Shown: in pieces, positions 5,868-20,104 of the stretch
How the letters are laid out: each line of letters begins with the position of its first letter
Position numbering within the stretch: the first letter of the stretch is position 1
Source of the DNA: a virus
Taxonomy: Duplodnaviria > Caudoviricetes
IMG/VR virus record: IMGVR_UViG_3300033121_001301
Span: 1 to 64,000 of that record
DNA: 64,000 nucleotides
Direction: 5' to 3' (one strand)
Program-made: the position numbers and the translations under genes
The notes under the pieces: generated by a model
Seen by the model: the letters and a program-made list of their open reading frames with translations, nothing else
Database searches by the model: none
What the model was told of the DNA's origin: nothing

Positions 5868-8800
5868 CTACTCCGGTAACTGATCGAGTCTAATCTCATT
5901 TCTGCCATTCATTGACTGAGACAACCCAGTTATTGGATTGAGACCACCTCTTTGAAGCTGCCCCAGAAAACGATTCAAATGATCGTCCCAGTTGTAGTCA
6001 ATTGTGGGAGAATCAGGCTGAATCTGATCCCTGTAGGCAGGAACATTCTCGTATCCACCAGCACCACTGGAACGACTACCTCGCACTGCTGGTATTTTCC
6101 CGAAGTTCTGATTCAAGTTGTTCACCACTGCTTTGAACACATCTGGCCTGTATTCCTTCAAATGCGTCAGACCCACTACGAGTGGCCCAAGCTCTTTGTT
6201 GGTCATCTTGGGAGTCCAACCCATCATGGCATCCTGCTCAGAGAAGTTCTTTCTGAGATTGGAAGTAAGCACCTTCGTCCAGTCATTCACAATGTTCTGA
6301 TCTGATTCAGGGCTGGCTGAAGTCAGGATCTGCGTAGGTGAATAGCCCTTGTAGGCTTCTGGGCCAGCCTGCTGCCAGGCTTGAACGTCTTCTGGTGTTC
6401 GGAGTGCTCCTGTTTCTCTGAGCTTGTATGGGCTCAGGAAGTCACCTAAGTTGCCACCTTTAGCAGAAAGATCACGCCATTGGCCTGCATTGAGTGGTCG
6501 ATACTCTGATAGCCCCCTGACCTTTGCTATTGCTGTCTGAACAGTTGGATCGAGGTAGTCAGGGACATTAGTGAGCTCTTGGTTCGCATCTCTCATGTGA
6601 GCATGACGAGAGAAGTTAGAAGCAATATTGCTGATTGCCTGCTGCCTGAGCTCTGGAGAAAGCGAGGAAAGCGCTTTTCCCAGGTTGTCTGGATTGCGAA
6701 TATCGTCAACTAGCTGGAGACGTTGACCAGCTGTGAGAGCTTTGAAAGCATCCGGATTAGCCAACGAACTGGGATCGTAAGGTTCCAATGGAGTTGAGGA
6801 AATACGAGAAGAGTGCTGAAGAGCACCATGAAGAGCCGCTGCTCTCGGGTCAGCTGCCACGGCTGAGTATGATCCTGCTCCCTTTTCTGACTGGAAATGC
6901 CGGTATTGGTTGTCTTGCAACACCTTGAAGAGTGTGAGCTTTCCTTGAGCTCCAAGGGCGTGGAGTGCATTGGGAACATTTGGGTCTCCATCTGCGGCTG
7001 CTTGAGCCAGGGAATTGATGTCTTTGTAACCGAAAGCCCCAATGGCTTCCATTCCTGGGATCTTGAACGTATCCAGGTTCATTGGAGTTGGTGGAACTGA
7101 AGTATCAATCTCACCCAGAGAGTTCAGATTGCCAAAGTCTTTGCTGCCATAGCCTATCTGCTGAGCCTTATTGAGAATCTGCTGATAGGTTTTTGCTTTC
7201 TGCAATGCTGCTGCATCACCAGCATAGCCGTTCCTGTACATATCACTCAAACGAGGGAATGAAGGATCGTTCATAGCTTCAGAAGCAACGAACTTTGAAA
7301 CGAGACCACGCATCGAAGCTTGTTGCTGCGGCGTTGCTTTGGTTGGATCAATTGCTGAAATCCCAGCTAATAGTTGATCAGGCTGCTCATAGATGATCTT
7401 GCTAAGCGGAGAGAGATTAGGTGGAAGTTGTTGAGAAGGTGGTGCAACCCTCACTCCAGCAGGATTAACTCCTGTTGCTGCCTCCTGAATTGCACCACCT
7501 TGGTTCAAAGCTGGGATCGCACCACCGACTGTAGCGGCTACTAAAGGTGCGCTCCCATTGTTAAAAGGGTTTTGAATTGGTGGCAGTTGTCCACCAGCAG
7601 GGGGCTGAGGAGCTACAGGTGGAGCAGCAGCTGGGCCTGAAGTAGTTGCAACTGGAGGTGCCCCCCAATTAGACCAGGCTTTAGCCGCTCCAGGAATAGC
7701 CCCGATAGCTTTTCCAGCACCATATCCAGCTAATGCCCCCGCATTAAGCTTGGTTTGCAGTGATGGAGGAGGTGGAGCTTGTGGAGCCTTGTTCAGATGG
7801 TTGTACAGTGCGTAGCCACCTAGACCAGCTGCACCAATACCTAATGCTGGCATGAGCCAATTGGGGCTACCAGAAGGTTTGGGTCTCCGTCTGCCGAGAA
7901 GATCTTCTTCCTCTTCTTCATCACCACCCATCATTTTGCTGCCAAGATAACCAGCACCGGCAGCTAAACCGCCACCGATGAGAGTTTCAGGCTCGAGCAT
8001 ATTCTTCCACTCAAAGCCATTGGGGCCATTAGCCATAGAGAACATAGTGCCTAGACCAGCAGCCGCTGGCATGGCTACATCTCGCATACCTGCAGGTGCC
8101 ATGGCTCCAGCTAACATGCCTAAGCCGCCACCAGTTACACCTTTGGTAACTGGATTGAGTTGACCGTGACCAGCGATAGCTGAATCAACATAGCCTTTAC
8201 CAGCCATTCGATTGAGCCCGTAAACCTGGCCAGCTCTGCTGAACTGATCAGGATTGAAAGCTTGAACTGCCTTGGTGCCAACATCAGCAGCCCAGTTCTT
8301 GGTCTTATCCCAAGCATTAGAAAGCCAGTTGGGGTTCGCTTGCTTGAGAATAGCAGCTGCTTTACGCAACTGCACTTTTTGACGCTGTGCATTAGATTCT
8401 GCTTCCTCCTCTTCTTTGATCTTGGCTACATGAGCTGCGAAATTACGAGCTTCTGACTCCTCGTAAGTCTCATTGGGATTTACTGGTTGAGAAGCAAGTT
8501 GAGGTTGAGCTGGTTGAGATGATTTTCCATCCAGCTTATCACCAAGAGCTGCCCAGATGCTTCGAGGATGGTTCCAACTCCAGCCAGGTCGAACACCGTT
8601 ATCAAGAGAGATGCCAGGCAAAGGTCCAGAAATACCAACACCGCCTCTTTTGCCACCAACTCTGATACCGAGGCTTGGCACAGGTACAGTTCCGAGAAGA
8701 TAATCGTAACCAGCCTGCAGACCTACACGGTCGTTACCAAGGTGATACTGCCCACCACCCCAGGCGGGGATGATCGCAGACTTCAAGAAATTGATGCCTA

Positions 8801-11800
8801 ACCCCCCACTCTTAAGAGCTGGAGCAGCTTCTTCCTCGTAGTACGGCTTGTATGGCTGAGCAGCTGGAGCAATGTCAGGCTTGGCTTCAGGAGCATAGAT
8901 GTTGTTGTTAGTAGCAGAACGACGGATCTTGTTCTGAGCTGCTCTGCCACCGAGGAATGGGGCCAGACCTGGGACAATGCCAACACCAACTCTGCCCAGT
9001 GTGCTGTTAGGACTGGCAACACCAGCAATAGTTCTTCGGTGAAGGCGATCGCCAAGCTCAGAAAGAGGGCCAGCTGAGCTCATTGGATTAAGCCAATAGT
9101 GGAATGGTCGTTCTTTCCTCATGTACCGGTGACCAGCAACATCTGAGTCTTTGTCAGCGAAATGACCCTGCATGGAGACGTGCCAAGGTGTTTCTCGCTT
9201 GGTGACTGGGCCTTCAGCACCTTCCAGCTTGTCCTGGTGTGGCTTGATGTGATCAGCGTACATCTGGGCTGTGCTCTTCTCCAACTCGGGAGAGCCACCA
9301 GATCGAATACCAGAAAGAGCACCCACAATGCCTTCCTGATGCCCACTGCGAGTAGGATCCAACTGACTGAGGATTCTCAATGGCATGTTGTTGGCAAGCC
9401 TGGCTCCACCAGTTCTGATGCGGCTACCAAGAGCCTTCTGAACTGGAGCAAGTCCGATAGCTGCCCGGTCATACAGAGAGCTGTCAGGCTTCTTCATGGT
9501 TTTCATCTTGTCAGCAGACCGCTCAATAGCAGTACCGCCAACTGAATCAGCCACGTAAGCATGCTGAATTGGCCCCAGCTTCTTCTTGGGCTTCTTTTCT
9601 TCCTTGTCTTCCTCAGCAGCTTGCTTGAGCATAGCAGCTGCTTTAAGAGTTGGAGTAGCTTCTTCAACAGGAGTGGGCTTTTTGAATTTACGATTAGCCA
9701 TGATGTTACTCGCTATTCTGGTGCCAACGCCTAGAGGGACGCTGGCATAACCTACAGGATCAATTGCCCCACCAACATAAGTGGCGTAAGCAGCTGGTAA
9801 AGTTCGAGTGCGGGCTTCTTCTCTGGATTTCAACTCTTCTGGCTTATCTTTGAGAACATCTTGTAAGGCTTTGTGGCTTTCTCTATTTGCCTGTCTTTCG
9901 TACCAGAGGTTTGCGGCATTACTGGCGTAGGGGATTTTAACTCCCATCGCTTCTGCTAACCCCAACCCGCCTTTCAGGGCGTAAAGATCGCGAAGAGTAC
10001 CAGCAGCTTGCCTGCCCAGCCAAGTCTTTGGTAGCGGCCTATTGTTGAAGTCAATTGCATGTCCAAGCTCATGCTCAGTAACAACTTTATTGTTAGAGGG
10101 CTGAACTACTGTGTTGGTGTACGGATTGTAATGTGGGCTTCGAAGAATAGCTTGAATCAGAGTATTAGAGGGTAGAGCCAAAAGACCTAGAGCTTTCCCC
10201 AGCGGCCCCGTTCGCTTGTTAGTGACAGTTCTCTTCAGATCCTGCCACATGTTGCTGCCACCAAGACTGACTCGAACATCATTCAGCTGGTGGGGTCTGA
10301 CAGAAGCAAAATCCTCTGCTATGTTCTTATGCTCTTGTGCCCTGTCTGGTCTAGCTGGATTTTGAAGCATATTTGAAAGAATCAGCGGCTGGAGACTGGC
10401 AATAGAGCCAACTCTTCCAAGAGTAGCATTGACTGCACCAGTTACTGGATCAGCTGTACCTACTTCAATACCGGCTTTGGTTAGCCCTCGAGAGTTCAAG
10501 AACGATGCGTCGTAGATGGTTGGATAGGTCTTAGCCTGTTTGTAGCTACCAGTCAGCCAATTCGCAGACTTAGCCACTCGAACACGCGAAGGCTCTTCTT
10601 CCTCTGGTTCTTCTCGCTTTTTACCATCAAGTTTATCTCCGATGGCTGCCCAGATGCTTCGAGGATGGTTCCACTGCCAGCCTGGATTAACACCAGTATC
10701 AAAAGAAACACCAGGTATCGGTCCAGAAATACCTACGCCACCTCTTCTGCCACCAACTCTGATGCCGAGATTTGGAACAGGTATAGTTCCGAGAAGATAG
10801 TCATAGCCGACTTCAGCTCCAAGCCCTCTGCCAGTTCCCAAGTGATACCTTCCACCACCCCAAGCTGGAACTGCTGACTTGAGGAAGTTGATCGAACCCA
10901 TCTTGGGAATCATCGGAGTCGGTCCAGCAACTGTAGGAGGAGACTCCATTATTTTCGCTGGGATTGGTCCAGGGATAGGTGCCAATGGCTCAGATGGAGC
11001 AGTTGGAGTTGGTCCAGGTAGTGTGGGTGGAGCTTCAAAGCTATTCCGTAGCTTATCCCTTACCATATCTCTCTTGATCATCTCAGCGCCCATAATGCCT
11101 CGATCGACTTTTTTGTCACCAGTCAGATTTAACCTCTGATGGAGATCCGCCTTTTGTTTAGCGGCTGCATCTCGAAGAGAAGGTCTAGGCTTCTCTGGAG
11201 CTGGTTGGAACTTAGGTTGGTTTGCCAGAGGATCAGTAACCTTCTTTCCGGTCAGATTCTTGTAAAGATGGTAACCACCAGCAGCAGCGCCAGCTCCAAG
11301 AGCCACTGGTGCAACTGCTGAAAGCCAAGAAGGAATGATCGACTTCTTCTTAGGTCTACCGTATTCGTCATACTCTTCTTCAGACCCCATCTTCGGCATA
11401 CCTGCCCCTGGAGTCATGATTTGATTCACAGCCCCGCCAATCGGATTAGGTAGCGTTGGAACTACACCAGGTGAAGCTGGGAACGGAGCTGGCTTGGGTG
11501 CATTGAATGCGGGAGCAGAACCACCGACAGGGTTAGGTAGAGTTGGAACAATACCTGGTGAAGCTGGAGCCGATCCAGAAACAGCAGGCTTCATGCCGCC
11601 CAAAGCTCTTTGAATGTGAGGAGGAACTCCAGTTACCACCCCGTCCAAAGCTTTTTGAATTTGAGGGGTCATTCCTGGAATAGCAGCTGGTTGCTTGGCT
11701 GCTGGTGGAGTGTAAACAGCTGGATCAATGGCAGACTTTTGAGTGAGCATGTGAGAAGCCTTTCCGGACTTTTGAACCGGGGAAGATGGCCGAGGTACTC

Positions 11801-13793
11801 GAATATAAGAGCCAGTGTTTCGATCGTAATCTATCATCCAACTACCATCGCGTTTTTGCAAGCCAAATGGAGTCAGAAAGTTAATCGAACCAGCCTTCTG
11901 AATACCCGTAGTAGTACCAGCAGTAATCGATGGTGCCTTGGTGGGAATCGCAGCTGACTGCGCTGGAGTAGCTCCGATCGCTGGCTTGGGAGCTGGTGGA
12001 GTAGTACCAAGCTGCTTGTTCAAAGCTGGGGCTGTGAGTGGCATGGATGGACCTGCTGGTGTTACCTTCACTGACCCTGGTGGAAGATCAGGAGTTGATC
12101 TGTTTCTGACGTAGATTTTTGGATCTACCCCCGAGCCTGGCATCAGTGGAGCAGTGAAAGCCCCTCTTGGCTTGCTTGGATACTTCACTTCCACAGAAGC
12201 TGGTGGCCATTGCATGTTCTGGTTCAGAGGCTCGCCAGGCTGCATATTGGCTGTTGATTTGCGAAGAGCATTGTTTGGAGCAGCGTAAAACCGTCTAGTG
12301 TAATCGCCTTCAGACTCTCCAGGCTGACGGGGAGCAGAAGAAGGATCAATATTAGAGATCAATTCATTGATTGCTTTTCGTTGCTCAAACAGCTTGTGGG
12401 TTTGACGCGATTCAGCATTGTGCTGCTGCATGGCATCCTGGTTCAACCCTCTCCGGATATCAACCACATTGGTTGACTCTGGTCTTCCAGTGAGATTCAT
12501 GGGCTTTGCGTGATAAGGCAATGCCTGCCGCTGTCTTGCAGCTTCAGCGTCGATCACTTCCTTCTGCTTGAGCCAACGATCACCTGGGCCACCCTCATCC
12601 CAAAAGCCTACCATCGTTGGGATGTCAGCAGAGAGCTTAAGCCAGTTGATAGACCCAGACTTCTGAACCTGTCTACGTTGAGAAAGAAGGTGTTTGAGCA
12701 CTTCCACCCGCGCAGCAAAAGCTTCAGGAGACATTGGGGTGACGTTCTTCATCAAACCAAGAGCCTTCCTGGGTGAGTAGTAGCCACGATTGTTAGCACT
12801 CCAATGATCCAATGGATTGCCACTTAAAGGTACTGAGTCATCAATGTCAGCAGTTACAAAGTGACTTTGACTGCCATGGTATTTCTGCTTCTCAGGGGAC
12901 AAGCCAGCTCTTTGTTCTGGAGTCCAAGCAAAAGAAACAGGCTTTACTGGCAGAAGACGTGGGTTCTTGACAGTCAGACCAGTCTCTTCAAAGAACTCTC
13001 TGGCTGCTGCTGTAGGAATGTCTTCGCCATCATCTACGCCACCACCTGGTACTGCGAATGACTTATCGTTGTCCCATACGCCGCCATAGATCTTCCCCGC
13101 TTTGTCCCTGGCAAACATCTCAGCCCGGTTGCGGAATAGTGGAGCAGCAGCAGGAGCGACTGGAGCTGTTGAAACATCAGCCTTCTTCTGTGTTTCCTTC
13201 GGCTTGGAAATGATCTTAATATCAGCAGATATGTGAGTGATTCCAGGCTTATCAAAGAAACCTACTGGCATGTTCTTATCGAAATGCCTTCGCTCTTTGT
13301 CTTCTACAAATGCGTTGAAAAGCTTGTCGATACCCTCGAAGATTGAAGCAGACTTCCTGCTTTCAAAGAAGTCAGCTTTCCTCTTCTTGGCTTCAGCCAG
13401 TGCTTCTGAATCAATCGAAGATTCTGGCAACTGCACTGGATACTTACCCCAATCGCTCTTTGCAGTGGGTGTACAGGTTCTGCAATCAGAAGGATCAACA
13501 TCATAGACTTGAGCAGCACCGATCGCTCGAGCGCCGCCATATGGCTTCTTGCATTCCTTGCAGTGATGATAGACCGGGTACTTCTGGGCAGCAGCTTTAG
13601 CTGTAGAAGGTGCAAACATCTGAGGATTTGATGCAGGTGCTGGCGGAACTGGAGCTGGCGACTTCAAAGGTAGCTTTGCTACAGGTGGGGTAGCGGGCTT
13701 GGTGTAGTTGTATCTGGAAGATGGAGAATTACCGATGATGGCAAATGGCATAGCTCCACCAGCATCAGCTATCTTCAGGTAATTCCTCGTCAT
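5868..13793 (-). CDS. Giant 2641-aa multi-module (polyvalent) protein, probable virion internal/ejected polyprotein
   Basis: Uninterrupted ORF with a CxxC..CxxC N-terminus, Nudix box, HELGH motif, duplicated modules, Gly-rich hydrophobic segments, Pro-rich linkers and repeated K-x-[AG] junctions. Confidence 0.9.
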   Translation of the reverse strand: MTRNYLKIADAGGAMPFAIIGNSPSSRYNYTKPATPPVAKLPLKSPAPVPPAPASNPQMFAPSTAKAAAQKYPVYHHCKECKKPYGGARAIGAAQVYDVDPSDCRTCTPTAKSDWGKYPVQLPESSIDSEALAEAKKRKADFFESRKSASIFEGIDKLFNAFVEDKERRHFDKNMPVGFFDKPGITHISADIKIISKPKETQKKADVSTAPVAPAAAPLFRNRAEMFARDKAGKIYGGVWDNDKSFAVPGGGVDDGEDIPTAAAREFFEETGLTVKNPRLLPVKPVSFAWTPEQRAGLSPEKQKYHGSQSHFVTADIDDSVPLSGNPLDHWSANNRGYYSPRKALGLMKNVTPMSPEAFAARVEVLKHLLSQRRQVQKSGSINWLKLSADIPTMVGFWDEGGPGDRWLKQKEVIDAEAARQRQALPYHAKPMNLTGRPESTNVVDIRRGLNQDAMQQHNAESRQTHKLFEQRKAINELISNIDPSSAPRQPGESEGDYTRRFYAAPNNALRKSTANMQPGEPLNQNMQWPPASVEVKYPSKPRGAFTAPLMPGSGVDPKIYVRNRSTPDLPPGSVKVTPAGPSMPLTAPALNKQLGTTPPAPKPAIGATPAQSAAIPTKAPSITAGTTTGIQKAGSINFLTPFGLQKRDGSWMIDYDRNTGSYIRVPRPSSPVQKSGKASHMLTQKSAIDPAVYTPPAAKQPAAIPGMTPQIQKALDGVVTGVPPHIQRALGGMKPAVSGSAPASPGIVPTLPNPVGGSAPAFNAPKPAPFPASPGVVPTLPNPIGGAVNQIMTPGAGMPKMGSEEEYDEYGRPKKKSIIPSWLSAVAPVALGAGAAAGGYHLYKNLTGKKVTDPLANQPKFQPAPEKPRPSLRDAAAKQKADLHQRLNLTGDKKVDRGIMGAEMIKRDMVRDKLRNSFEAPPTLPGPTPTAPSEPLAPIPGPIPAKIMESPPTVAGPTPMIPKMGSINFLKSAVPAWGGGRYHLGTGRGLGAEVGYDYLLGTIPVPNLGIRVGGRRGGVGISGPIPGVSFDTGVNPGWQWNHPRSIWAAIGDKLDGKKREEPEEEEPSRVRVAKSANWLTGSYKQAKTYPTIYDASFLNSRGLTKAGIEVGTADPVTGAVNATLGRVGSIASLQPLILSNMLQNPARPDRAQEHKNIAEDFASVRPHQLNDVRVSLGGSNMWQDLKRTVTNKRTGPLGKALGLLALPSNTLIQAILRSPHYNPYTNTVVQPSNNKVVTEHELGHAIDFNNRPLPKTWLGRQAAGTLRDLYALKGGLGLAEAMGVKIPYASNAANLWYERQANRESHKALQDVLKDKPEELKSREEARTRTLPAAYATYVGGAIDPVGYASVPLGVGTRIASNIMANRKFKKPTPVEEATPTLKAAAMLKQAAEEDKEEKKPKKKLGPIQHAYVADSVGGTAIERSADKMKTMKKPDSSLYDRAAIGLAPVQKALGSRIRTGGARLANNMPLRILSQLDPTRSGHQEGIVGALSGIRSGGSPELEKSTAQMYADHIKPHQDKLEGAEGPVTKRETPWHVSMQGHFADKDSDVAGHRYMRKERPFHYWLNPMSSAGPLSELGDRLHRRTIAGVASPNSTLGRVGVGIVPGLAPFLGGRAAQNKIRRSATNNNIYAPEAKPDIAPAAQPYKPYYEEEAAPALKSGGLGINFLKSAIIPAWGGGQYHLGNDRVGLQAGYDYLLGTVPVPSLGIRVGGKRGGVGISGPLPGISLDNGVRPGWSWNHPRSIWAALGDKLDGKSSQPAQPQLASQPVNPNETYEESEARNFAAHVAKIKEEEEAESNAQRQKVQLRKAAAILKQANPNWLSNAWDKTKNWAADVGTKAVQAFNPDQFSRAGQVYGLNRMAGKGYVDSAIAGHGQLNPVTKGVTGGGLGMLAGAMAPAGMRDVAMPAAAGLGTMFSMANGPNGFEWKNMLEPETLIGGGLAAGAGYLGSKMMGGDEEEEEDLLGRRRPKPSGSPNWLMPALGIGAAGLGGYALYNHLNKAPQAPPPPSLQTKLNAGALAGYGAGKAIGAIPGAAKAWSNWGAPPVATTSGPAAAPPVAPQPPAGGQLPPIQNPFNNGSAPLVAATVGGAIPALNQGGAIQEAATGVNPAGVRVAPPSQQLPPNLSPLSKIIYEQPDQLLAGISAIDPTKATPQQQASMRGLVSKFVASEAMNDPSFPRLSDMYRNGYAGDAAALQKAKTYQQILNKAQQIGYGSKDFGNLNSLGEIDTSVPPTPMNLDTFKIPGMEAIGAFGYKDINSLAQAAADGDPNVPNALHALGAQGKLTLFKVLQDNQYRHFQSEKGAGSYSAVAADPRAAALHGALQHSSRISSTPLEPYDPSSLANPDAFKALTAGQRLQLVDDIRNPDNLGKALSSLSPELRQQAISNIASNFSRHAHMRDANQELTNVPDYLDPTVQTAIAKVRGLSEYRPLNAGQWRDLSAKGGNLGDFLSPYKLRETGALRTPEDVQAWQQAGPEAYKGYSPTQILTSASPESDQNIVNDWTKVLTSNLRKNFSEQDAMMGWTPKMTNKELGPLVVGLTHLKEYRPDVFKAVVNNLNQNFGKIPAVRGSRSSGAGGYENVPAYRDQIQPDSPTIDYNWDDHLNRFLGQLQRGGLNPITGLSQSMNGRNEIRLDQLPE
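8524..8775 (-). repeat. Internal duplicated module, copy B (about 85 aa)
   Basis: PAWGGGQYHLG...GYDYLLGTVPVPSLGIRVGG...WNHPRSIWAALGDKLDGK. Shares a 29-nt identical run with copy A. Confidence 0.9.
9720..10500 (-). other. Zincin-like metallopeptidase module inside the giant protein
   Basis: YNPYTNTVV...TEHELGHAIDF (HExxH at 10059-10073) with a downstream LWYERQAN (E..A third-ligand pattern). Boundaries are approximate. Confidence 0.65.
10621..10870 (-). repeat. Internal duplicated module, copy A (about 85 aa)
   Basis: PAWGGGRYHLG...GYDYLLGTIPVPNLGIRVGG...WNHPRSIWAAIGDKLDGK. Confidence 0.9.
12760..13140 (-). other. Nudix hydrolase module inside the giant protein
   Basis: Complete Nudix box G-GVDDG-E-DIPTAAA-REFFEETGL matches GX5EX7REUXEEXGU. 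Boundaries are approximate. Confidence 0.9.
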
Positions 13794-14289: not shown

Positions 14290-14320
14290 CTAGGAACTCA
14301 CAAAAACCTATCCACATAGA

Positions 14321-14587
14321 TTAGCGAGTCAGAACAAAACTATCTACGGGAGTCTTATCGATCTCGTAAACGCCCTCTGGGGACTTCCTGTAGCCCATAG
14401 AGAGCAGTTTAGCCTCCAGCGCCTCGGAAGTCGGTGGAGCCTTCCCTGAGCAGTCTGAGACGACCACAGGGCAGTAGGTATTGGTAGTCATGTCACGGAG
14501 AAGCATAACCGTTTTCAGCTCAGGCTTGATCCTTTCGGGGAGTTGGTAGTTTGAGGGGAGTTCGACAGTTACATTCTCAGCGGTCAT
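14321..14587 (-). CDS. Hypothetical protein
   Basis: 88-aa ORF with normal composition, collinear with neighbours. Confidence 0.65.
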   Translation of the reverse strand: MTAENVTVELPSNYQLPERIKPELKTVMLLRDMTTNTYCPVVVSDCSGKAPPTSEALEAKLLSMGYRKSPEGVYEIDKTPVDSFVLTR

Positions 14588-14635
14588 AGAGACCCTTTCA
14601 AAACTGGCAAGCTACCACACAATCGCTGTGATAGC

Positions 14636-14680
14636 TAAAAAAAAGGCAACCCGCATCAGATAGAATCTGATGCGGGGCAC
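14636..14680 (-). terminator. Intrinsic terminator
   Basis: Stem CCGCATCAGA/TCTGATGCGG (14651-14675) with a 5-nt loop, followed on the minus strand by a T run. Lies just downstream of 14702-15751. Confidence 0.85.
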
Positions 14681-14701
14681 TTTTATGGGTTGATGGTTAA
14701 G

Positions 14702-15751
14702 TTAGCTGCGAGGTTTCAAAAATGAGAAGATGGGTGCATTCGTGCCACCCTTCAGGGATTCGCGTTTAGCGTTCTTGGCCATGAGAGCCAAACGCTGCAA
14801 ATCACGCTCATATGTTGGGTGAACGCTGATCACTGGGAACGTGGCGGTCATGACAGGTTCAGCACCTTTTTCAAGGATGCCGAAACTGCCAAGACGGGGA
14901 ACCAGGACTCGAGTCCCAGATTCTGCCACAGCTTGTGGAAGCTTCTTCGTAAGCTCCACAACCAGTTTGCGACTGCGACCAGCGTCTACCACCAGGTCAA
15001 TCAACTCGGTAATAGCACCCTTGGGGTAGGTGCTACAGTTCCGAGCCAGGTAGGTAGCGACCCGGTATTCCATCTTCTCAACATCAGGATCAGCGAAATC
15101 CATGAATGGATCTGTAGCTTCCTGAATGATAAACAACGAACAGCCATAGCTGTCGTCATTGATCGCAGGAAGATTCATCGCTGTGCTGTACCAGAAAGCA
15201 ACCCGAGCGTCACCAGCGTGAGCCAGAGTGCAATGCTGCTTCCGGTCAAACCGGATATTGTTCCCCTGGGTGATGTCGTACTCAGGGTTCCGCAGCATGT
15301 GGCGGAAGAGGTGCTGGAACACCTCAACTTCGTGCTCCTGACTTGAGGTATCCAATTGGATACCCAGAGAAGAAGCTCGCTGATGGTGCTCTGGAACGGG
15401 AGCATCTCCGTAGTTGTAGACCCCAGCAAGGATGCAGGCTCGCACCCAGCTGAAGTCCCAGGTCTTGCATTCGCCAGTTGTCTGACGAGCGCATGATCCA
15501 CCTTCGTGAATCGTAACCTTCTCAAAACTCTTGTGATCACAGATCTGATTCTGGATCGTTGGTGTGGTCTCACCAACATAGTTCAAAGGCTGAACGAACT
15601 CGAGGGTCATGGGGGCCAAGAAGCCGCTGGCAGCGCGAACCGACTCGAATACGTCGTCGAAGCTGACTTCACCATTTACGAATGGAAGTGAGTTATCGAC
15701 CAACTGATCAGCGGCGGCTGCGACGGACAAAATAGCGTTCGACATGTTCAA
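14702..15751 (-). CDS. Hypothetical protein with possible C-terminal HU/IHF-like domain
   Basis: RBS AAGGGG. C-terminal ITELIDLVVDAGRSRKLVVELTKKLPQAVAESGTRVLVPRLGSF resembles the HU helices and G..V....G.F strand. Confidence 0.7.
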   Translation of the reverse strand: MNMSNAILSVAAAADQLVDNSLPFVNGEVSFDDVFESVRAASGFLAPMTLEFVQPLNYVGETTPTIQNQICDHKSFEKVTIHEGGSCARQTTGECKTWDFSWVRACILAGVYNYGDAPVPEHHQRASSLGIQLDTSSQEHEVEVFQHLFRHMLRNPEYDITQGNNIRFDRKQHCTLAHAGDARVAFWYSTAMNLPAINDDSYGCSLFIIQEATDPFMDFADPDVEKMEYRVATYLARNCSTYPKGAITELIDLVVDAGRSRKLVVELTKKLPQAVAESGTRVLVPRLGSFGILEKGAEPVMTATFPVISVHPTYERDLQRLALMAKNAKRESLKGGTNAPIFSFLKPRS

Positions 15752-15787
15752 TCCCCTTAAAGCTTCCGTGTTTTTTCCAGTTGTTAT

Positions 15788-15842
15788 TGACCGCTAGGAA
15801 CTGGACTCACCAAGCGTCCTGGAGCTTCCCCAGGAGTATTAC
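15788..15842 (-). promoter_or_regulatory. Conserved tandem-hairpin leader motif, copy 1
   Basis: GTAATAC-TCCTGG-GGAAGCT-CCAGGA-CGCT...AGCG-GTCA, upstream of 15751. Confidence 0.6.
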
Positions 15843-15885
15843 TTTCAGTTTTCAGCCATGAAGTGGGCTGTTCTGGGTGTGTGCT

Positions 15886-15920
15886 AAAAAAAAACCCTGC
15901 TTGTGCGAGCAGGGTTTCTT
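15886..15920 (-). terminator. Intrinsic terminator
   Basis: Stem AAACCCTGCT/AGCAGGGTTT with a long T tract on the minus strand, after 15938-16525. Confidence 0.85.
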
Positions 15921-15937
15921 TGGATTGATAGGATGAA

Positions 15938-16547: not shown

Positions 16548-16589
16548 TGACCGCTTGTTAAGCGTCCAGGAGCTTCCCCTGGATATTAC
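16548..16589 (-). promoter_or_regulatory. Conserved tandem-hairpin leader motif, copy 2
   Basis: GTAATA-TCCAGG-GGAAGCT-CCTGGA-CGCTT-AAC-AAGCG-GTCA, upstream of 16525. Confidence 0.6.
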
Positions 16590-16611: not shown

Positions 16612-16950
16612 TTAGGCAGAAGCCAGAGCTTCTTCCTCGGTTGGTTGCTTATTTGTCTCTCGCATGTACCAGGGTAGGTACTTCTGCTCAGTCTTCCTGA
16701 TGTGGTGTTTCCACCCATCTGGGAGCTTTTCAACAGAGAAGAAACCAATGCCGCCATTGGTTCCTTCAGGAGATATTGCGTGTTCGCAGTCGTCGCAGAG
16801 CAATGCTCCGCAAACGAACTGCCCGGTTTCTTCACATTCATGTGTAGCTGGTGCTCCACATGATTGACACTTTTTGTCTTTATGGCTTTCGCAGGGCTCT
16901 TCGTGCTGGCACTTTGAAGAGCTCCAAGCCAACTTGATTCCACAGAGCAT
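16612..16950 (-). CDS. Cys-rich putative zinc-binding protein
   Basis: CQSC..ATHEC...VCGALLCDDCEH. The likely ATG at 16950 overlaps the upstream TAA. Confidence 0.65.
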   Translation of the reverse strand: MLCGIKLAWSSSKCQHEEPCESHKDKKCQSCGAPATHECEETGQFVCGALLCDDCEHAISPEGTNGGIGFFSVEKLPDGWKHHIRKTEQKYLPWYMRETNKQPTEEEALASA

Positions 16951-17662: not shown

Positions 17663-17947
17663 CTACTTGAAGCAGCTGTTCTTGTACTCTCCCAACAACT
17701 CCACATGAAGCTTTTGAATCTGCTTGTCAGCAAACTCAACTTCACGCTTGTAGTCATTGGCATGCTGAGTCAGCTGCTGGCAGCGGAACTCGATGTTTTT
17801 AACAGTGTCTTCCAACTGGGCGTTCTTCTCGATAAGTCCGCTGATGATCGCCATGGCAAACACCAGCATACAACCGAAGATTAGACCCAGCAGGTTCTGC
17901 ACGACCCAAGCGCCGAGACTATCGGCTTTCTTAACGAACTGATTCAT
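17663..17947 (-). CDS. Membrane protein with C-terminal coiled coil
   Basis: RBS AGGAG. A TM segment (LLGLIFGCMLVFAMAIISGLI) is followed by a heptad-like region. Confidence 0.7.
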   Translation of the reverse strand: MNQFVKKADSLGAWVVQNLLGLIFGCMLVFAMAIISGLIEKNAQLEDTVKNIEFRCQQLTQHANDYKREVEFADKQIQKLHVELLGEYKNSCFK

Positions 17948-17965
17948 GTGAAACTCCTGTTGAAA

Positions 17966-18220
17966 TTAACGTAACCCGGCTTGTGCTAGAGCGATATCCG
18001 TGTAGCGCAGACCAACATGCGCAAGCCTTCCATAAACTTCTCGCTTTTGCGACAAGTCATAAATAACACGTTTCACCAGGTCAATTGACCGGATTTCAGT
18101 TGGAATCTCTCCACATCTGAATTGCTGAGCTTCGACCCCAGCTGCTTCAAATATGATTTGATCACCCTCCTGGGTAACCTTGACTCCTACTACCACCTTC
18201 TGCTGCAAAATAGCAAGCAT
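17966..18220 (-). CDS. Hypothetical protein
   Basis: 84 aa, GGGAG upstream. Confidence 0.65.
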   Translation of the reverse strand: MLAILQQKVVVGVKVTQEGDQIIFEAAGVEAQQFRCGEIPTEIRSIDLVKRVIYDLSQKREVYGRLAHVGLRYTDIALAQAGLR

Positions 18221-18239
18221 CAGACTTCTCCCAGAAAGG

Positions 18240-18640
18240 ATTGATAAGTGCGAACCAGTTTAACGTCCTGGCAGACGGCTGCAATTTTCATCAGCATCCC
18301 ATTTACCGCAGTGGGTTTCTGCTTCTAAAGAGACTTGGTTTACGATCCAGCGAGCCACCTTAGACTGGCTTGCTGGCGATCGTCCAGGATAACCCCTGGC
18401 GGTCCGCTAGTTTAACGTCTGTTCAGACGGTCAGATCCTCGACCCACAGTATCTGGCTACCAGAACTCAGGGCTGTTGCCCCAAACTAGTACGGTGATTG
18501 GACCACTATTCTCAGTGGAACTACACCAGACTTCCCTCCAACTTGGAGAAGCCTACACCAGATACTGCTTCGGCTTGCACCTGCTGCAAGCTGCATCCTG
18601 TTTGATCAGAGACAAACAGGCAAAGCCTCAAAAAGCGTGT
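18240..18640 (-). ncRNA. Candidate structured non-coding RNA
   Basis: About 400 nt with no convincing CDS, more than ten hairpins and long-range complementarities (CTAGTTT/AAACTAG, CAGTATCTGG/CCAGATACTG). Strand is inferred from neighbouring genes. Confidence 0.55.
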
Positions 18641-18678
18641 TTAACGTCACGCCTGACGAAGCAAGTGAACACAAAAAC

Positions 18679-18876
18679 TCAAACACTGGCCCAACCGGCC
18701 AAGCTGGGAGACTCTTGTATAAGTCTCCCATTCGAAGCAGTTACTGCTTCGTTGTAACACTCCTCGCAGACAGCCTCATAATTGCCACCACCTGCTCCAT
18801 TGTTGGACAATGGGTTCCACCCGGTCTGGACCTCGGTGGTGGCTTCTTTACCGCAAGCACAAAGTACCTTTTCCAT
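18679..18876 (-). CDS. Small Cys-containing protein (65 aa)
   Basis: RBS AGGAGG then ATG at 18876 (MEKVLCACG...VCEECY). The ORF-track extension to 18987 crosses a repeat and is unlikely. Confidence 0.65.
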   Translation of the reverse strand: MEKVLCACGKEATTEVQTGWNPLSNNGAGGGNYEAVCEECYNEAVTASNGRLIQESPSLAGWASV

Positions 18877-19000
18877 CGCAGACCTCCTGTTGTGAAACTC
18901 CCTCACTCTGCATTTACTCCAGGCTTGTGACTGGCTACTCCACAACATCGTGGAATAGGCTGCATTAAGGTACGTGTTTAACGTCACGCCTGACAGCTGG

Positions 19001-19141
19001 TTAAAACACGCAGCGACCGGGGAGACTACTTACGTAAGCCCGGTAGTGTTGTAGCTGGTACCATTCCTGACAGTCGCCAGGAACGGAGGTGAGCCAGTAG
19101 TACCGCCCGTCTTTTCCCCGATGATAAACATGCGTAAACAT
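19001..19141 (-). CDS. Small aromatic-rich protein (46 aa; absent from ORF track)
   Basis: RBS AGGAG, ATG at 19141, TAA at 19001. Sequence MFTHVYHRGKDGRYYWLTSVPGDCQEWYQLQHYRAYVSSLPGRCVF. Confidence 0.55.
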   Translation of the reverse strand: MFTHVYHRGKDGRYYWLTSVPGDCQEWYQLQHYRAYVSSLPGRCVF

Positions 19142-19162
19142 ATCAATCTCCTGGTTAACTGC

Positions 19163-19196
19163 AAAACGAAACCACCACTGGAAAACCCAGTGGTGG
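19163..19196 (-). terminator. Intrinsic terminator (twin 1)
   Basis: CCACCACTGG-GTTTT-CCAGTGGTGG-TTTCGTTTT. Confidence 0.75.
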
Positions 19197-19263
19197 CTTA
19201 AGGGTTAATTCCCGACACTTGGACAACACTGAGTGACCAGCTCAGTAATTGGCCCTCCAGACT

Positions 19264-19297
19264 AAAAGAAAACACCACTGGAAAGCCCAGTGGTGTT
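19264..19297 (-). terminator. Intrinsic terminator (twin 2)
   Basis: AACACCACTGG-GCTTT-CCAGTGGTGTT-TTCTTTT, a near copy of twin 1. Confidence 0.75.
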
Positions 19298-19570
19298 AAA
19301 GATCCTGCTTAACGTCTACGGGAGACGTGCTGAGTTCTCATCAGCATCCCTATTTGATAAGAGGTAGGTTACCTCGCATAACAACTGACACTAACCTGAC
19401 GCAGTGAGAGAATAAATGGACTCTCCCACCCTTGCTGAAGTTACATCAGCACCCCATTTGAACTGGCGGGTTACCAGAGTTTGCCCGATATCCCTGGCAT
19501 AAGGGGAGAGAAGATAGAAACTCATAATACCTATCTCTCTCTATCTATTGTGCCACCGTGGAGCCCTGAA

Positions 19571-20104
19571 TTAAGCTACGCTTGAAAACTCTCCAAAATG
19601 GTGCTTTGAAGCTGCAACGTAAACTTTGGAAGCTTCATCAAGATCTGTGAAAAGACCCAAATGGATGTACTTTCCCCTCACTCTGATCTTTGCTTGCCAC
19701 TTGTTGGTTGGCTTATTCCAAGTAACACCCCTTCGACCACTGGTGTTATTCTTAGCTAGACGACTATTACTTCCATTTTGAGAGGGTGTAGCCAATCGAA
19801 GATTAGAAATTTTGTCATCAAGAGAGTTTCTATTCTTGTGGTCAAGAAGAATACCAGCAGGAGGAGAAGAGCCCTTGTTCAACAACCAAATCAAATGAGC
19901 TCGCTGATACAGTTTTCCATTGATTCCTATTATCCAACGATGATTTCCATTGGAACTGAGGTGAGAGCCAGCTTCTTTCAAAGCAAACCTGGTGTTCCAA
20001 GATCTACAATCCCTGTCACTCTTGAAGTCACTCTCTGGTCTCACATTCCAGAAAAGCTTACCATCGACTTCAGTAAACAAACGTCGTACATCAATTGCAG
20101 TCAT
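19571..20104 (-). CDS. HNH-AP2 homing endonuclease
   Basis: LDHKNRNSLDDKISNLRLATPSQN (HNH) plus SGRRGVTWNKPTNKWQAKIRVRGKYIHLGLF (AP2). RBS GAGGAG. Confidence 0.92.
   Translation of the reverse strand: MTAIDVRRLFTEVDGKLFWNVRPESDFKSDRDCRSWNTRFALKEAGSHLSSNGNHRWIIGINGKLYQRAHLIWLLNKGSSPPAGILLDHKNRNSLDDKISNLRLATPSQNGSNSRLAKNNTSGRRGVTWNKPTNKWQAKIRVRGKYIHLGLFTDLDEASKVYVAASKHHFGEFSSVA

Follow-up and report, generated by a model that had tools for sequence, protein, structure and literature searches.

What does a phage keep in several hundred nucleotides of strongly folded sequence that contain no gene? The question is raised by a gap of 458 nt (18678-18221, minus strand) between open reading frames (ORFs) of 65 and 84 amino acids (aa) in the IMG/VR phage record IMGVR_UViG_3300033121_001301, and the window analysed here comprises the first 64 kb (64,000 nt) of this 85,272-bp record. 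A sequence-only reading had described positions 18240 to 18640 as a densely folded non-coding island with a possible pseudoknot and a layout recalling the hatchet ribozyme. Its picture of a non-coding, structured minus-strand RNA with pseudoknot-type elements close to a ribozyme stands, whereas the hatchet has to be given up. The island holds three of five minus-strand copies, all within 1.1 kb, of a short element that closely resembles the coremin motif of plant-virus RNAs. That reading had not linked the island to this repeat, and it had missed a predicted twister ribozyme (18900-18971) just outside its coordinates. We see about an even chance that the island is the non-coding part of a minus-strand transcript, composed of reusable RNA modules whose knots would insulate the downstream units of a small-gene array.

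Five coremin-like elements on the minus strand

All five elements follow one plan, a 5-bp hairpin YGUCN/NGACG (wobbles counted) with a loop of 4-5 nt, followed by UUAA(A/G)C. The pattern CGTC-N6/7-GACGTTAARC occurs four times, always on the minus strand, and not once in 100 shuffles; the fifth copy begins with UGUC. The fifth pair of the stem covaries between U-A and A-U. Since the U·G wobbles of sites 1 and 4 are valid solely when the minus strand is read, the pairing is placed at the level of the RNA.

At four of the five sites the loop can also pair with the next 3-6 bases in the manner of an H-type pseudoknot. Site 3 (18633..18658) forms the 5' edge of the island, beginning 21 nt after the stop codon of the 65-aa ORF, and reads CGUCA-GGCG-UGACG, UUAAAC, then ACGCUU, with AGGCGU:ACGCUU as its loop pairing. 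A candidate second hairpin, AGGC-UUU-GCCU (18618..18628, minus strand), stands 4-6 nt after the pseudoknot strand, and contig L074 has GGCC-CCUUU-GGCC at the matching place, the position being kept and the stem sequence differing. Site 4 (18972..18995; UGUCA-GGCG-UGACG-UUAAAC-ACGU, pairing GCGU:ACGU) begins 6 nt after the stop codon of a 46-aa ORF (ORF46) and ends 4 nt before stem P1 of the twister. Site 1 (18255..18277; CGUCU-GCCA-GGACG, UUAAAC, then UGG), which pairs CCAG:CUGG (GCCAG:CUGGU), precedes the AUG of the 84-aa ORF by 38 nt and is 89% identical over 27 nt to a sequence of contig L086. Pairing is marginal (UCC:GGA) at site 5 (19303..19327; CGUCU-CCCGU-AGACG-UUAAGC-AGGA), which is followed by a strong hairpin. 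Site 2 (18407..18429), finally, reads GUC-UGAACA-GAC-GUUAAACUAG and shows no Watson-Crick pairing between loop and spacer.

The generality of loop-flank pairing was assessed in IMG/VR with a pattern that fixed only the stem and GUUAAAC and left the loop and the downstream flank free. After exclusion of YGNNAD loops and of one large family, and with a single sequence retained for each loop (n=72), a loop-flank helix score of at least 3.5 was reached by 20 of the 72 sequences, compared with 11.6 when the flanks were permuted (p about 0.005); the pairing is non-random. The signal was absent from YGNNAD loops, in keeping with their non-Watson-Crick type. The scan returned several unrelated families, and most of its matches belong to families other than that of the phage elements. 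One of these, GUC-CGNNAU-GAC-GUUAAACUA, stands in tandem on contigs of 2-5 kb, one of which carries a luteovirus-type BTE element. Another, found on about 20 contigs of 10-200 kb, reads CGUC-RAGCUG-GACG-UUAAAC-GYAGCA with GCUG:CAGC pairing of loop and flank; it lies about 40 nt upstream of ATG codons without a Shine-Dalgarno sequence (L030, L045, L055, L060, L087, L103, L108, L126 and others) and might serve large eukaryotic DNA viruses as a coremin-like leader element.

The coremin motif, GUCCGAAGACGUUAAACUAC, belongs to an RNA of plant viruses, e.g. [quoted passage not shown] It consists of a first hairpin (hp1) of 3-5 bp with a YGAD or, as hexaloop, YGNNAD loop, a conserved spacer (GUUAAACUAC, in which A15-A17, C18, U19 and A20 are essential) and, directly after it, a second hairpin of at least 4 bp, and it stalls Xrn1 as well as scanning ribosomes (PMC6546385, PMC10520033). 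The phage elements share with it the GUC/GAC stem of hp1, present at all five sites, followed by GUUAAAC (GUC..GAC-GUUAAAC), and also occur in tandem and after coding regions, a further hairpin lying downstream at sites 2, 3 and 5. Site 2 has nine of the ten spacer bases of BNYVV coremin, including GUUAAACUA, and site 1, when read with the hexaloop UGCCAG, fits YGNNAD. The phage elements differ from coremin in that they occur in a double-stranded DNA phage of bacteria, where the blocked nuclease, if any, cannot be Xrn1, and in that their stem has 5 bp, other bases take the place of CUAC in the 3' half of the spacer, and the second hairpin lies 3-6 nt further away or gives way to the twister.

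Closer in its loop pairing is xrRNA_WCC, a Watson-Crick variant of coremin with pairs between loop 1 and spacer such as GGCG-CGCU, the selected 'Hit2'. This exoribonuclease-resistant RNA (xrRNA) has been described from a laboratory screen and in two species of RNA virus, and in its published register loop nt 6-8 pair with spacer nt 18-20 and a G occupies loop position 5 (PMC10321173). Its combination of hp1, UUAAA and a short Watson-Crick loop-spacer helix is found at four of the phage sites (marginally at site 5), and sites 3 and 4 share their GGCG loop with Hit2 and have ACGC downstream. As for the register, the loops GGCG and GCCA start with G; hp1, however, is one pair longer in the phage, the pairing strand is shifted 1-2 nt 3' and the helix can extend to 4-6 pairs. 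The five sites closely resemble coremin, mostly in its Watson-Crick type, and are candidate rather than established xrRNAs. Coremin-type exoribonuclease-resistant pseudoknots have been reported so far only in eukaryotic RNA viruses, and a full-text literature search found no paper on exoribonuclease-resistant or coremin-type RNAs in bacteriophages.

A conserved GUC/GAC stem with a GUUAAAC tail and variable loops would also suit a protein that reads stem and tail, and the elements could be RNA sites for such a protein, for example an endoribonuclease of host or phage, or a regulator of translation, instead of passive roadblocks. We consider this improbable, as a simple hairpin-and-tail site needs no covariation of loop and flank, no candidate protein was identified, and the version in which the elements mimic CRISPR repeats (an RNA anti-CRISPR) was tested and rejected. 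For the latter, 185,579 genomes were scanned for GACGTTAAAC repeated at 40-66 nt, which gave no matching array and only coding 69-nt repeats and Cas9-/Cas12a-type repeats without hairpin.

Fold and parts of the island

The island is indeed free of genes, as had been claimed: 18221-18678 contains no ORF of at least 40 aa and none with a credible ribosome-binding site (RBS), and a check for a conserved coding sequence found no relatives of its six-frame pieces in the genome or in related contigs. All hairpins listed by the sequence-only reading are present, and most of them reappear in the minus-strand minimum-free-energy fold, for example CCUGUUUG/CAAACAGG (8 bp), GCUUGCA/UGCAAGC (7 bp), CCAC-UGAGAAUA-GUGG and CCAGG-GGUUAU-CCUGG. 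The perfect 10-bp pair CAGUAUCUGG/CCAGAUACUG, for which we estimate a chance of about 0.09 in 440 nt, was likewise found; in the minimum-free-energy fold it extends to 12 bp and closes a three-hairpin junction. CUAGUUU/AAACUAG and CCG/CGG, proposed to close a junction that this pair would cross, do exist in the sequence and are mutually exclusive with the 10-12-bp helix.

Compared with dinucleotide shuffles, the 440-nt region folds with a z-score of -4.39 on the minus and -3.86 on the plus strand, and none of 100 shuffles was as good on either. This signal stems mainly from an ORF-less core of 202 nt, U3 (18431..18632), which reaches a z-score of -4.14 on the minus strand with 0 of 200 dinucleotide shuffles as good, while 18279-18406 attains only -1.68. 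U3 comprises two hairpins of 7-8 bp and then the 12-bp helix (about 18556-18567 with 18445-18456) that closes the three-hairpin junction; we found no relatives of it in INPHARED DNA or in related contigs. In a scan of 14-24 kb with 150-nt windows, z-scores of -4 to -7.7 were reached by many windows from 14 to 19.3 kb, among them coding ones, and those inside the island gave -1.3 to -3.2. Because coding windows fold as well or better, fold energy alone is weak evidence and does not single out the island.

The strong fold of the core and a twister 260 nt upstream bring up the idea that the island, whole or in part, is itself a self-cleaving ribozyme, either a form of hatchet that has gained insertions or a member of a class not yet described, all the more as new ribozyme classes were first found beside twisters and hammerheads (PMC4604425). 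The hatchet plan runs from a P1 hairpin through three conserved linker residues (C20-A21-A22), P2, UGGG and a P3-L3-P4 arm to GCAG...AAA and P2' (PMC6561176). The island follows these blocks loosely and in the same order, with a hairpin carrying a UGAGA-type loop, then CAA, UGGG and CAG..U.AAA. On inspection the parts diverge: the linker between the candidate P1 (CCAC..GUGG) and P2 (CUAG) measures 13 nt (UCCAAUCACCGUA) against exactly three invariant residues in hatchet, and three independent hairpins, the last being hp1 of a coremin-like element, stand where hatchet has a single coaxial P3-L3-P4 arm. The block that had suggested hatchet, 'CAGACGUUAAA', is explained as stem plus spacer of a coremin-like element. 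An Rfam scan of 17800-19700 in sensitive mode returned no match at E ≤ 10 to hatchet, pistol, twister-sister, hammerhead or hepatitis delta virus-like ribozymes. Genome-wide, the best hatchet match (RF02678) scored 13.8 bits at 16838-16883, the gathering score being 51 bits, and the pistol search (RF02679) was empty. A separately built twister model, run with filters off, gave at most 5 bits, and thus no second twister, in the island. Taken with the core's lack of homologues, we judge a ribozyme here highly unlikely. A manual parse of site 3 as a pistol failed too, no P2 being possible, and the CUGAUGA words of the region sit in hairpins and not in hammerhead cores.

The 3' portion of the island holds two further pieces with copies elsewhere. 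A degenerate leader hairpin, CCAGG-GGUUAU-CCUGG followed by ACGAU (18381..18399, minus strand), is a copy of a hairpin that stands upstream of the genes for the 195-aa and 347-aa proteins. There, CCAGG..CCUGG is followed by ACGCU, at 16562-16588 and at about 15820-15850, and 24 of the 27 nt of the former are kept in a relative of the phage (L013, 19118-19144). Module 2 (AGAAACCCACUGCGGUAAAUGGGAUGCUGAUGAAAAUUGCAGC, two small hairpins; 18279..18320, minus strand) has further copies at 19331-19354 and 19433-19459. It is 79% identical over 38 nt, with a covarying stem (GCUGA/UCAGC against GCCGA/UCGGC), to a module that stands directly 5' of twister P1 in contig L068 and precedes two of the twisters there.

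Beyond its boundary modules the island might consist of decayed gene cassettes that have neither ORFs nor a function of their own, the hairpins being leftovers of leaders and terminators. U3 may be such a cassette, since it holds an RBS-like GGAGGG-N7-GUG that is followed at once by UAG and resembles the real RBS of the 84-aa gene. The neighbouring U2, with its degenerate leader hairpin, folds no better than shuffles (z -1.68), the block is missing from the nearest relatives, and the contigs that other samples yielded for the same phage end at recurring points in this region. We nevertheless regard decay as rather unlikely. U3 folds well beyond its shuffles and closes with a 12-bp helix that includes the perfect 10-bp pair, nine contigs of the same phage, drawn from several samples, agree in this sequence to 100% (and hence give no covariation information), and an ORF-less, strongly folded cassette exists in L068 as well. 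This latter cassette (L068, 3815-4075, minus strand) is a multibranch RNA with a long helix and a z-score of -5.35, placed within an array of twisters and coremin-like elements.

The twister ribozyme and recurrence in other phages

Positions 18900..18971 of the minus strand, the leader of the 65-aa ORF, match the type-P1 twister (RF03160) over the full length of the model and make a convincing twister ribozyme by sequence, with a predicted cut between 18967 and 18966. P1, P2, P4, the UAA cleavage site, the conserved loop nucleotides and the pseudoknot are all present. The score of 58.3 bits (E 1.5e-10 over the whole window) remains below the gathering score of 67.2, while a separately built twister model yields 69 bits. 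The two departures from the consensus, CCC to CAC in the loop and GGG to GUG near the 3' end, compensate each other, and the score is low because covariance models cannot score such covariation in a pseudoknot. Three versions of the triplets are now at hand: CCC:GGG in the Rfam consensus, UCC:GGA in the four twisters of L068 and CAC:GUG in the window. Like clustered hammerheads and twisters, this one is placed between small phage genes, and ribozyme-flanked genes in prophages were published in 2011 (Perreault et al., PMC3088659). It differs in being fused to a coremin-like hairpin, which stands where the optional P0 stem would be (PMC5408937).

The elements recur in other phages. L125, a distant relative whose 195-aa protein is 33.5% identical to that of the phage and three further proteins 22-31%, carries UCGUCCGGCGUGACGUUAAACACGC, which agrees with site 3 in 24 of 25 nt and stands directly upstream of the gene for the 195-aa homologue. 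Elements of this GGCG type occur in L074, L137 and L068 as well, at 3-35 nt from the preceding stop codons and followed by a small hairpin; the L137 copy has an intrinsic terminator before it and the next ribosome site behind it. L068 has hardly any proteins in common with the phage, and is the only one among the IMG/VR pattern matches in which twisters accompany the motif. Its four twisters lie on the same strand as its coremin-like elements, and at 2505-2590, arranged as at site 4, a twister directly follows the variant hairpin GUCCU-GGCG-AGGAC-AUUAAAC. The array is hypervariable and assembled from mobile modules.

The elements might instead act on the DNA, either as hairpin promoters for a phage RNA polymerase (N4-like) or as recombination sites that shuffle cassettes in the way of integron attC or of the promoter-stem-loop repeats of T4-type phages. 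The phage elements are found at the borders of cassettes, 6-21 nt past stop codons, GTTAAAC agrees with the attC core GTTRRRY, and the position of the L137 element behind a terminator, the hypervariable array and the failure to see a sigma-70-type promoter on the minus strand would all agree with a DNA site. Against this, the wobble pairs work in minus-strand RNA only, complementarity of loop and flank indicates an RNA pseudoknot, and the motif is an RNA element in RNA viruses. The inverse core site of attC is missing at most sites (1, 3 and 5), L068 has the variant ATTAAAC, and ORF46 has no such element between the terminators upstream of it and its RBS. Neither an RNA polymerase (N4-like or other) nor an integron integrase was detected in the 85-kb fragment, and a 2641-aa protein (5868-13793) considered as an N4-type virion RNA polymerase shows an N-terminal NUDIX domain as its only recognisable part. 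An action on DNA therefore seems to us quite improbable. A scan of close relatives found no IMG/VR relatives of the 2641-aa protein.

Proposed role at cassette boundaries and genomic setting

In our preferred reading of the island as a chain of insulating RNA modules rather than a single ribozyme, a minus-strand transcript would cross the hypervariable small-gene array. Each coremin-like element would fold into a compact H-type pseudoknot, at four of five sites through pairing of loop and flank, and by analogy with viral coremin this knot would form a mechanical roadblock to enzymes moving 5'-3' on the RNA. RNase J-type exonucleases, RNase E scanning from the 5' end and possibly ribosomes are the candidates for being blocked. 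Decay begun in one unit would then go no further than the knot, and the unit downstream of it would persist, its 5' end defined. The island could give rise to two products in this manner. One would be a protected, strongly folded RNA without an ORF that covers about 200 nt (18431-18632) from site 3 to site 2, and the other a leader with three guards, serving the 84-aa gene and those that follow. Within this transcript the twister would cut between the genes for the 46-aa and 65-aa proteins. That an xrRNA fold can stop a bacterial enzyme is established for a flaviviral xrRNA, which blocks RNase J1 in vitro (PMC5760640); for the phage elements we infer it by analogy, as we do any role of the ORF-less RNA.

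Several observations weigh against this proposal. The coremin loop rule (PMC6546385, PMC10520033) fits only site 1 (UGCCAG), the loops of site 2 (UGAACA), sites 3 and 4 (AGGCGU or GGCG) and site 5 (CCCGU) falling outside it, and the site 2 loop resembles CGAACA, which failed in vitro. Sites 1, 3 and 4 keep GUUAAAC and then diverge, altering the essential U19 and A20, and the spacer GUUAAGC of site 5 alters A17. Insertions between spacer and second hairpin lowered Xrn1 resistance in coremin (PMC6546385, PMC10520033), and no phage copy has its second hairpin directly after the spacer: at sites 2, 3 and 5 it begins 9-10 nt past UUAAAC, the twister takes its place at site 4 and site 1 has none. 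Every copy breaks at least one of the rules of Xrn1 resistance, so we class the sites as coremin-like only; the rules, moreover, derive from a eukaryotic enzyme and may not be those that hold for bacterial RNases. The position of the knot at site 4 and in L068 is upstream of the cut made by the twister, so that it cannot protect the downstream gene there. The host may lack RNase J, and the local fold z-scores of the island are unexceptional.

The nearest relatives, which were located via the recombinase and via a 241-aa protein, add to these difficulties. The three closest ones that reach the locus, L015 (recombinase 67% identical) and L013 and L014 (51%), keep the flanking genes and lack the entire 19527-16525 block and with it the island, the elements and the twister, so that the 202-nt core has no comparative support. 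L021, a short contig of a further relative, is without elements and twister as well. At the equivalent gene junction, L014 carries a tRNA-like element (7878-7933; mascRNA model, 38.3 bits, E 3e-4), which would be another kind of RNA-processing punctuation.

It is possible, though on balance doubtful, that the locus exemplifies something broader: phages would halt bacterial 5'-3' decay (by RNase J, or by RNase E as it scans) with coremin-type knots placed at the borders of cassettes, the 200-nt RNA without an ORF would be a counterpart of subgenomic flaviviral RNA, and the motif and the twisters would be mobile junction modules in unrelated phages. The ORF-less RNA would then be a decay-resistant molecule made by, and perhaps acting on, the RNA decay machinery of the host. 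Should the knots stall bacterial RNases, a protein-free RNA device of about 30 nt from plant viruses would also work in bacteria and phages, and would offer a compact tool to stabilise RNAs in bacteria. Part of the unexplained structured RNA between phage accessory genes would be accounted for, and a reason would be suggested for the clustering of twisters and hammerheads there, in that cutting and capping of message pieces would cooperate. Should the knots not stall RNases, the suspected hatchet is still ruled out and a twister missed by the Rfam threshold is mapped. The locus is compact, with five natural variants, one twister and one ORF-less RNA within 1.4 kb.

The genes surrounding the island are all encoded on the minus strand. 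From 5' to 3', the local order starts with an HNH endonuclease (20104-19571) and a gap of 429 nt, in which two similar hairpins resembling intrinsic terminators, 100 nt apart (19271-19297 and 19169-19199), lie between site 5 and ORF46. ORF46 (19001..19141, RBS AGGAGA) and a gap of 124 nt are followed by the Cys-rich 65-aa ORF (18679..18876, RBS AGGAGG), which has a weak match to DUF7685, and by the island. The 84-aa ORF (17966..18220, RBS GGGAGAAG) is the first gene downstream of the island, and a search for relatives of its protein outside this phage found none; ORFs of 94, 68, 123, 112, 195 and 347 aa come next. Strong intrinsic terminators (e.g. AAACCCUGCUCGCACAAGCAGGGUUUUUUUUU) also occur between genes of the same array at 15746-15937 and 14290-14701, so that the host RNA polymerase probably transcribes the array as several units.

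The phage itself is very far removed from those described so far: identity of its UDG-PolA polymerase to SPO1-like polymerases does not exceed 26%, and INPHARED holds no DNA match to the island region. The record is classed as linear with a CheckV completeness estimate of 41%, and a search for tRNAs and transfer-messenger RNA found none. ORF46 ends with GUG UUU UAA (19001-19009), and a +1 slip on UUU_U would enter an open frame (18679-18987) that passes site 4 and the twister into the 65-aa ORF, probably by chance. Contig ends at 18503, inside the island, and at 17803 recur in independent assemblies of the same phage (L005/L006 and L007/L008), which suggests that cassette content varies at the level of the population.

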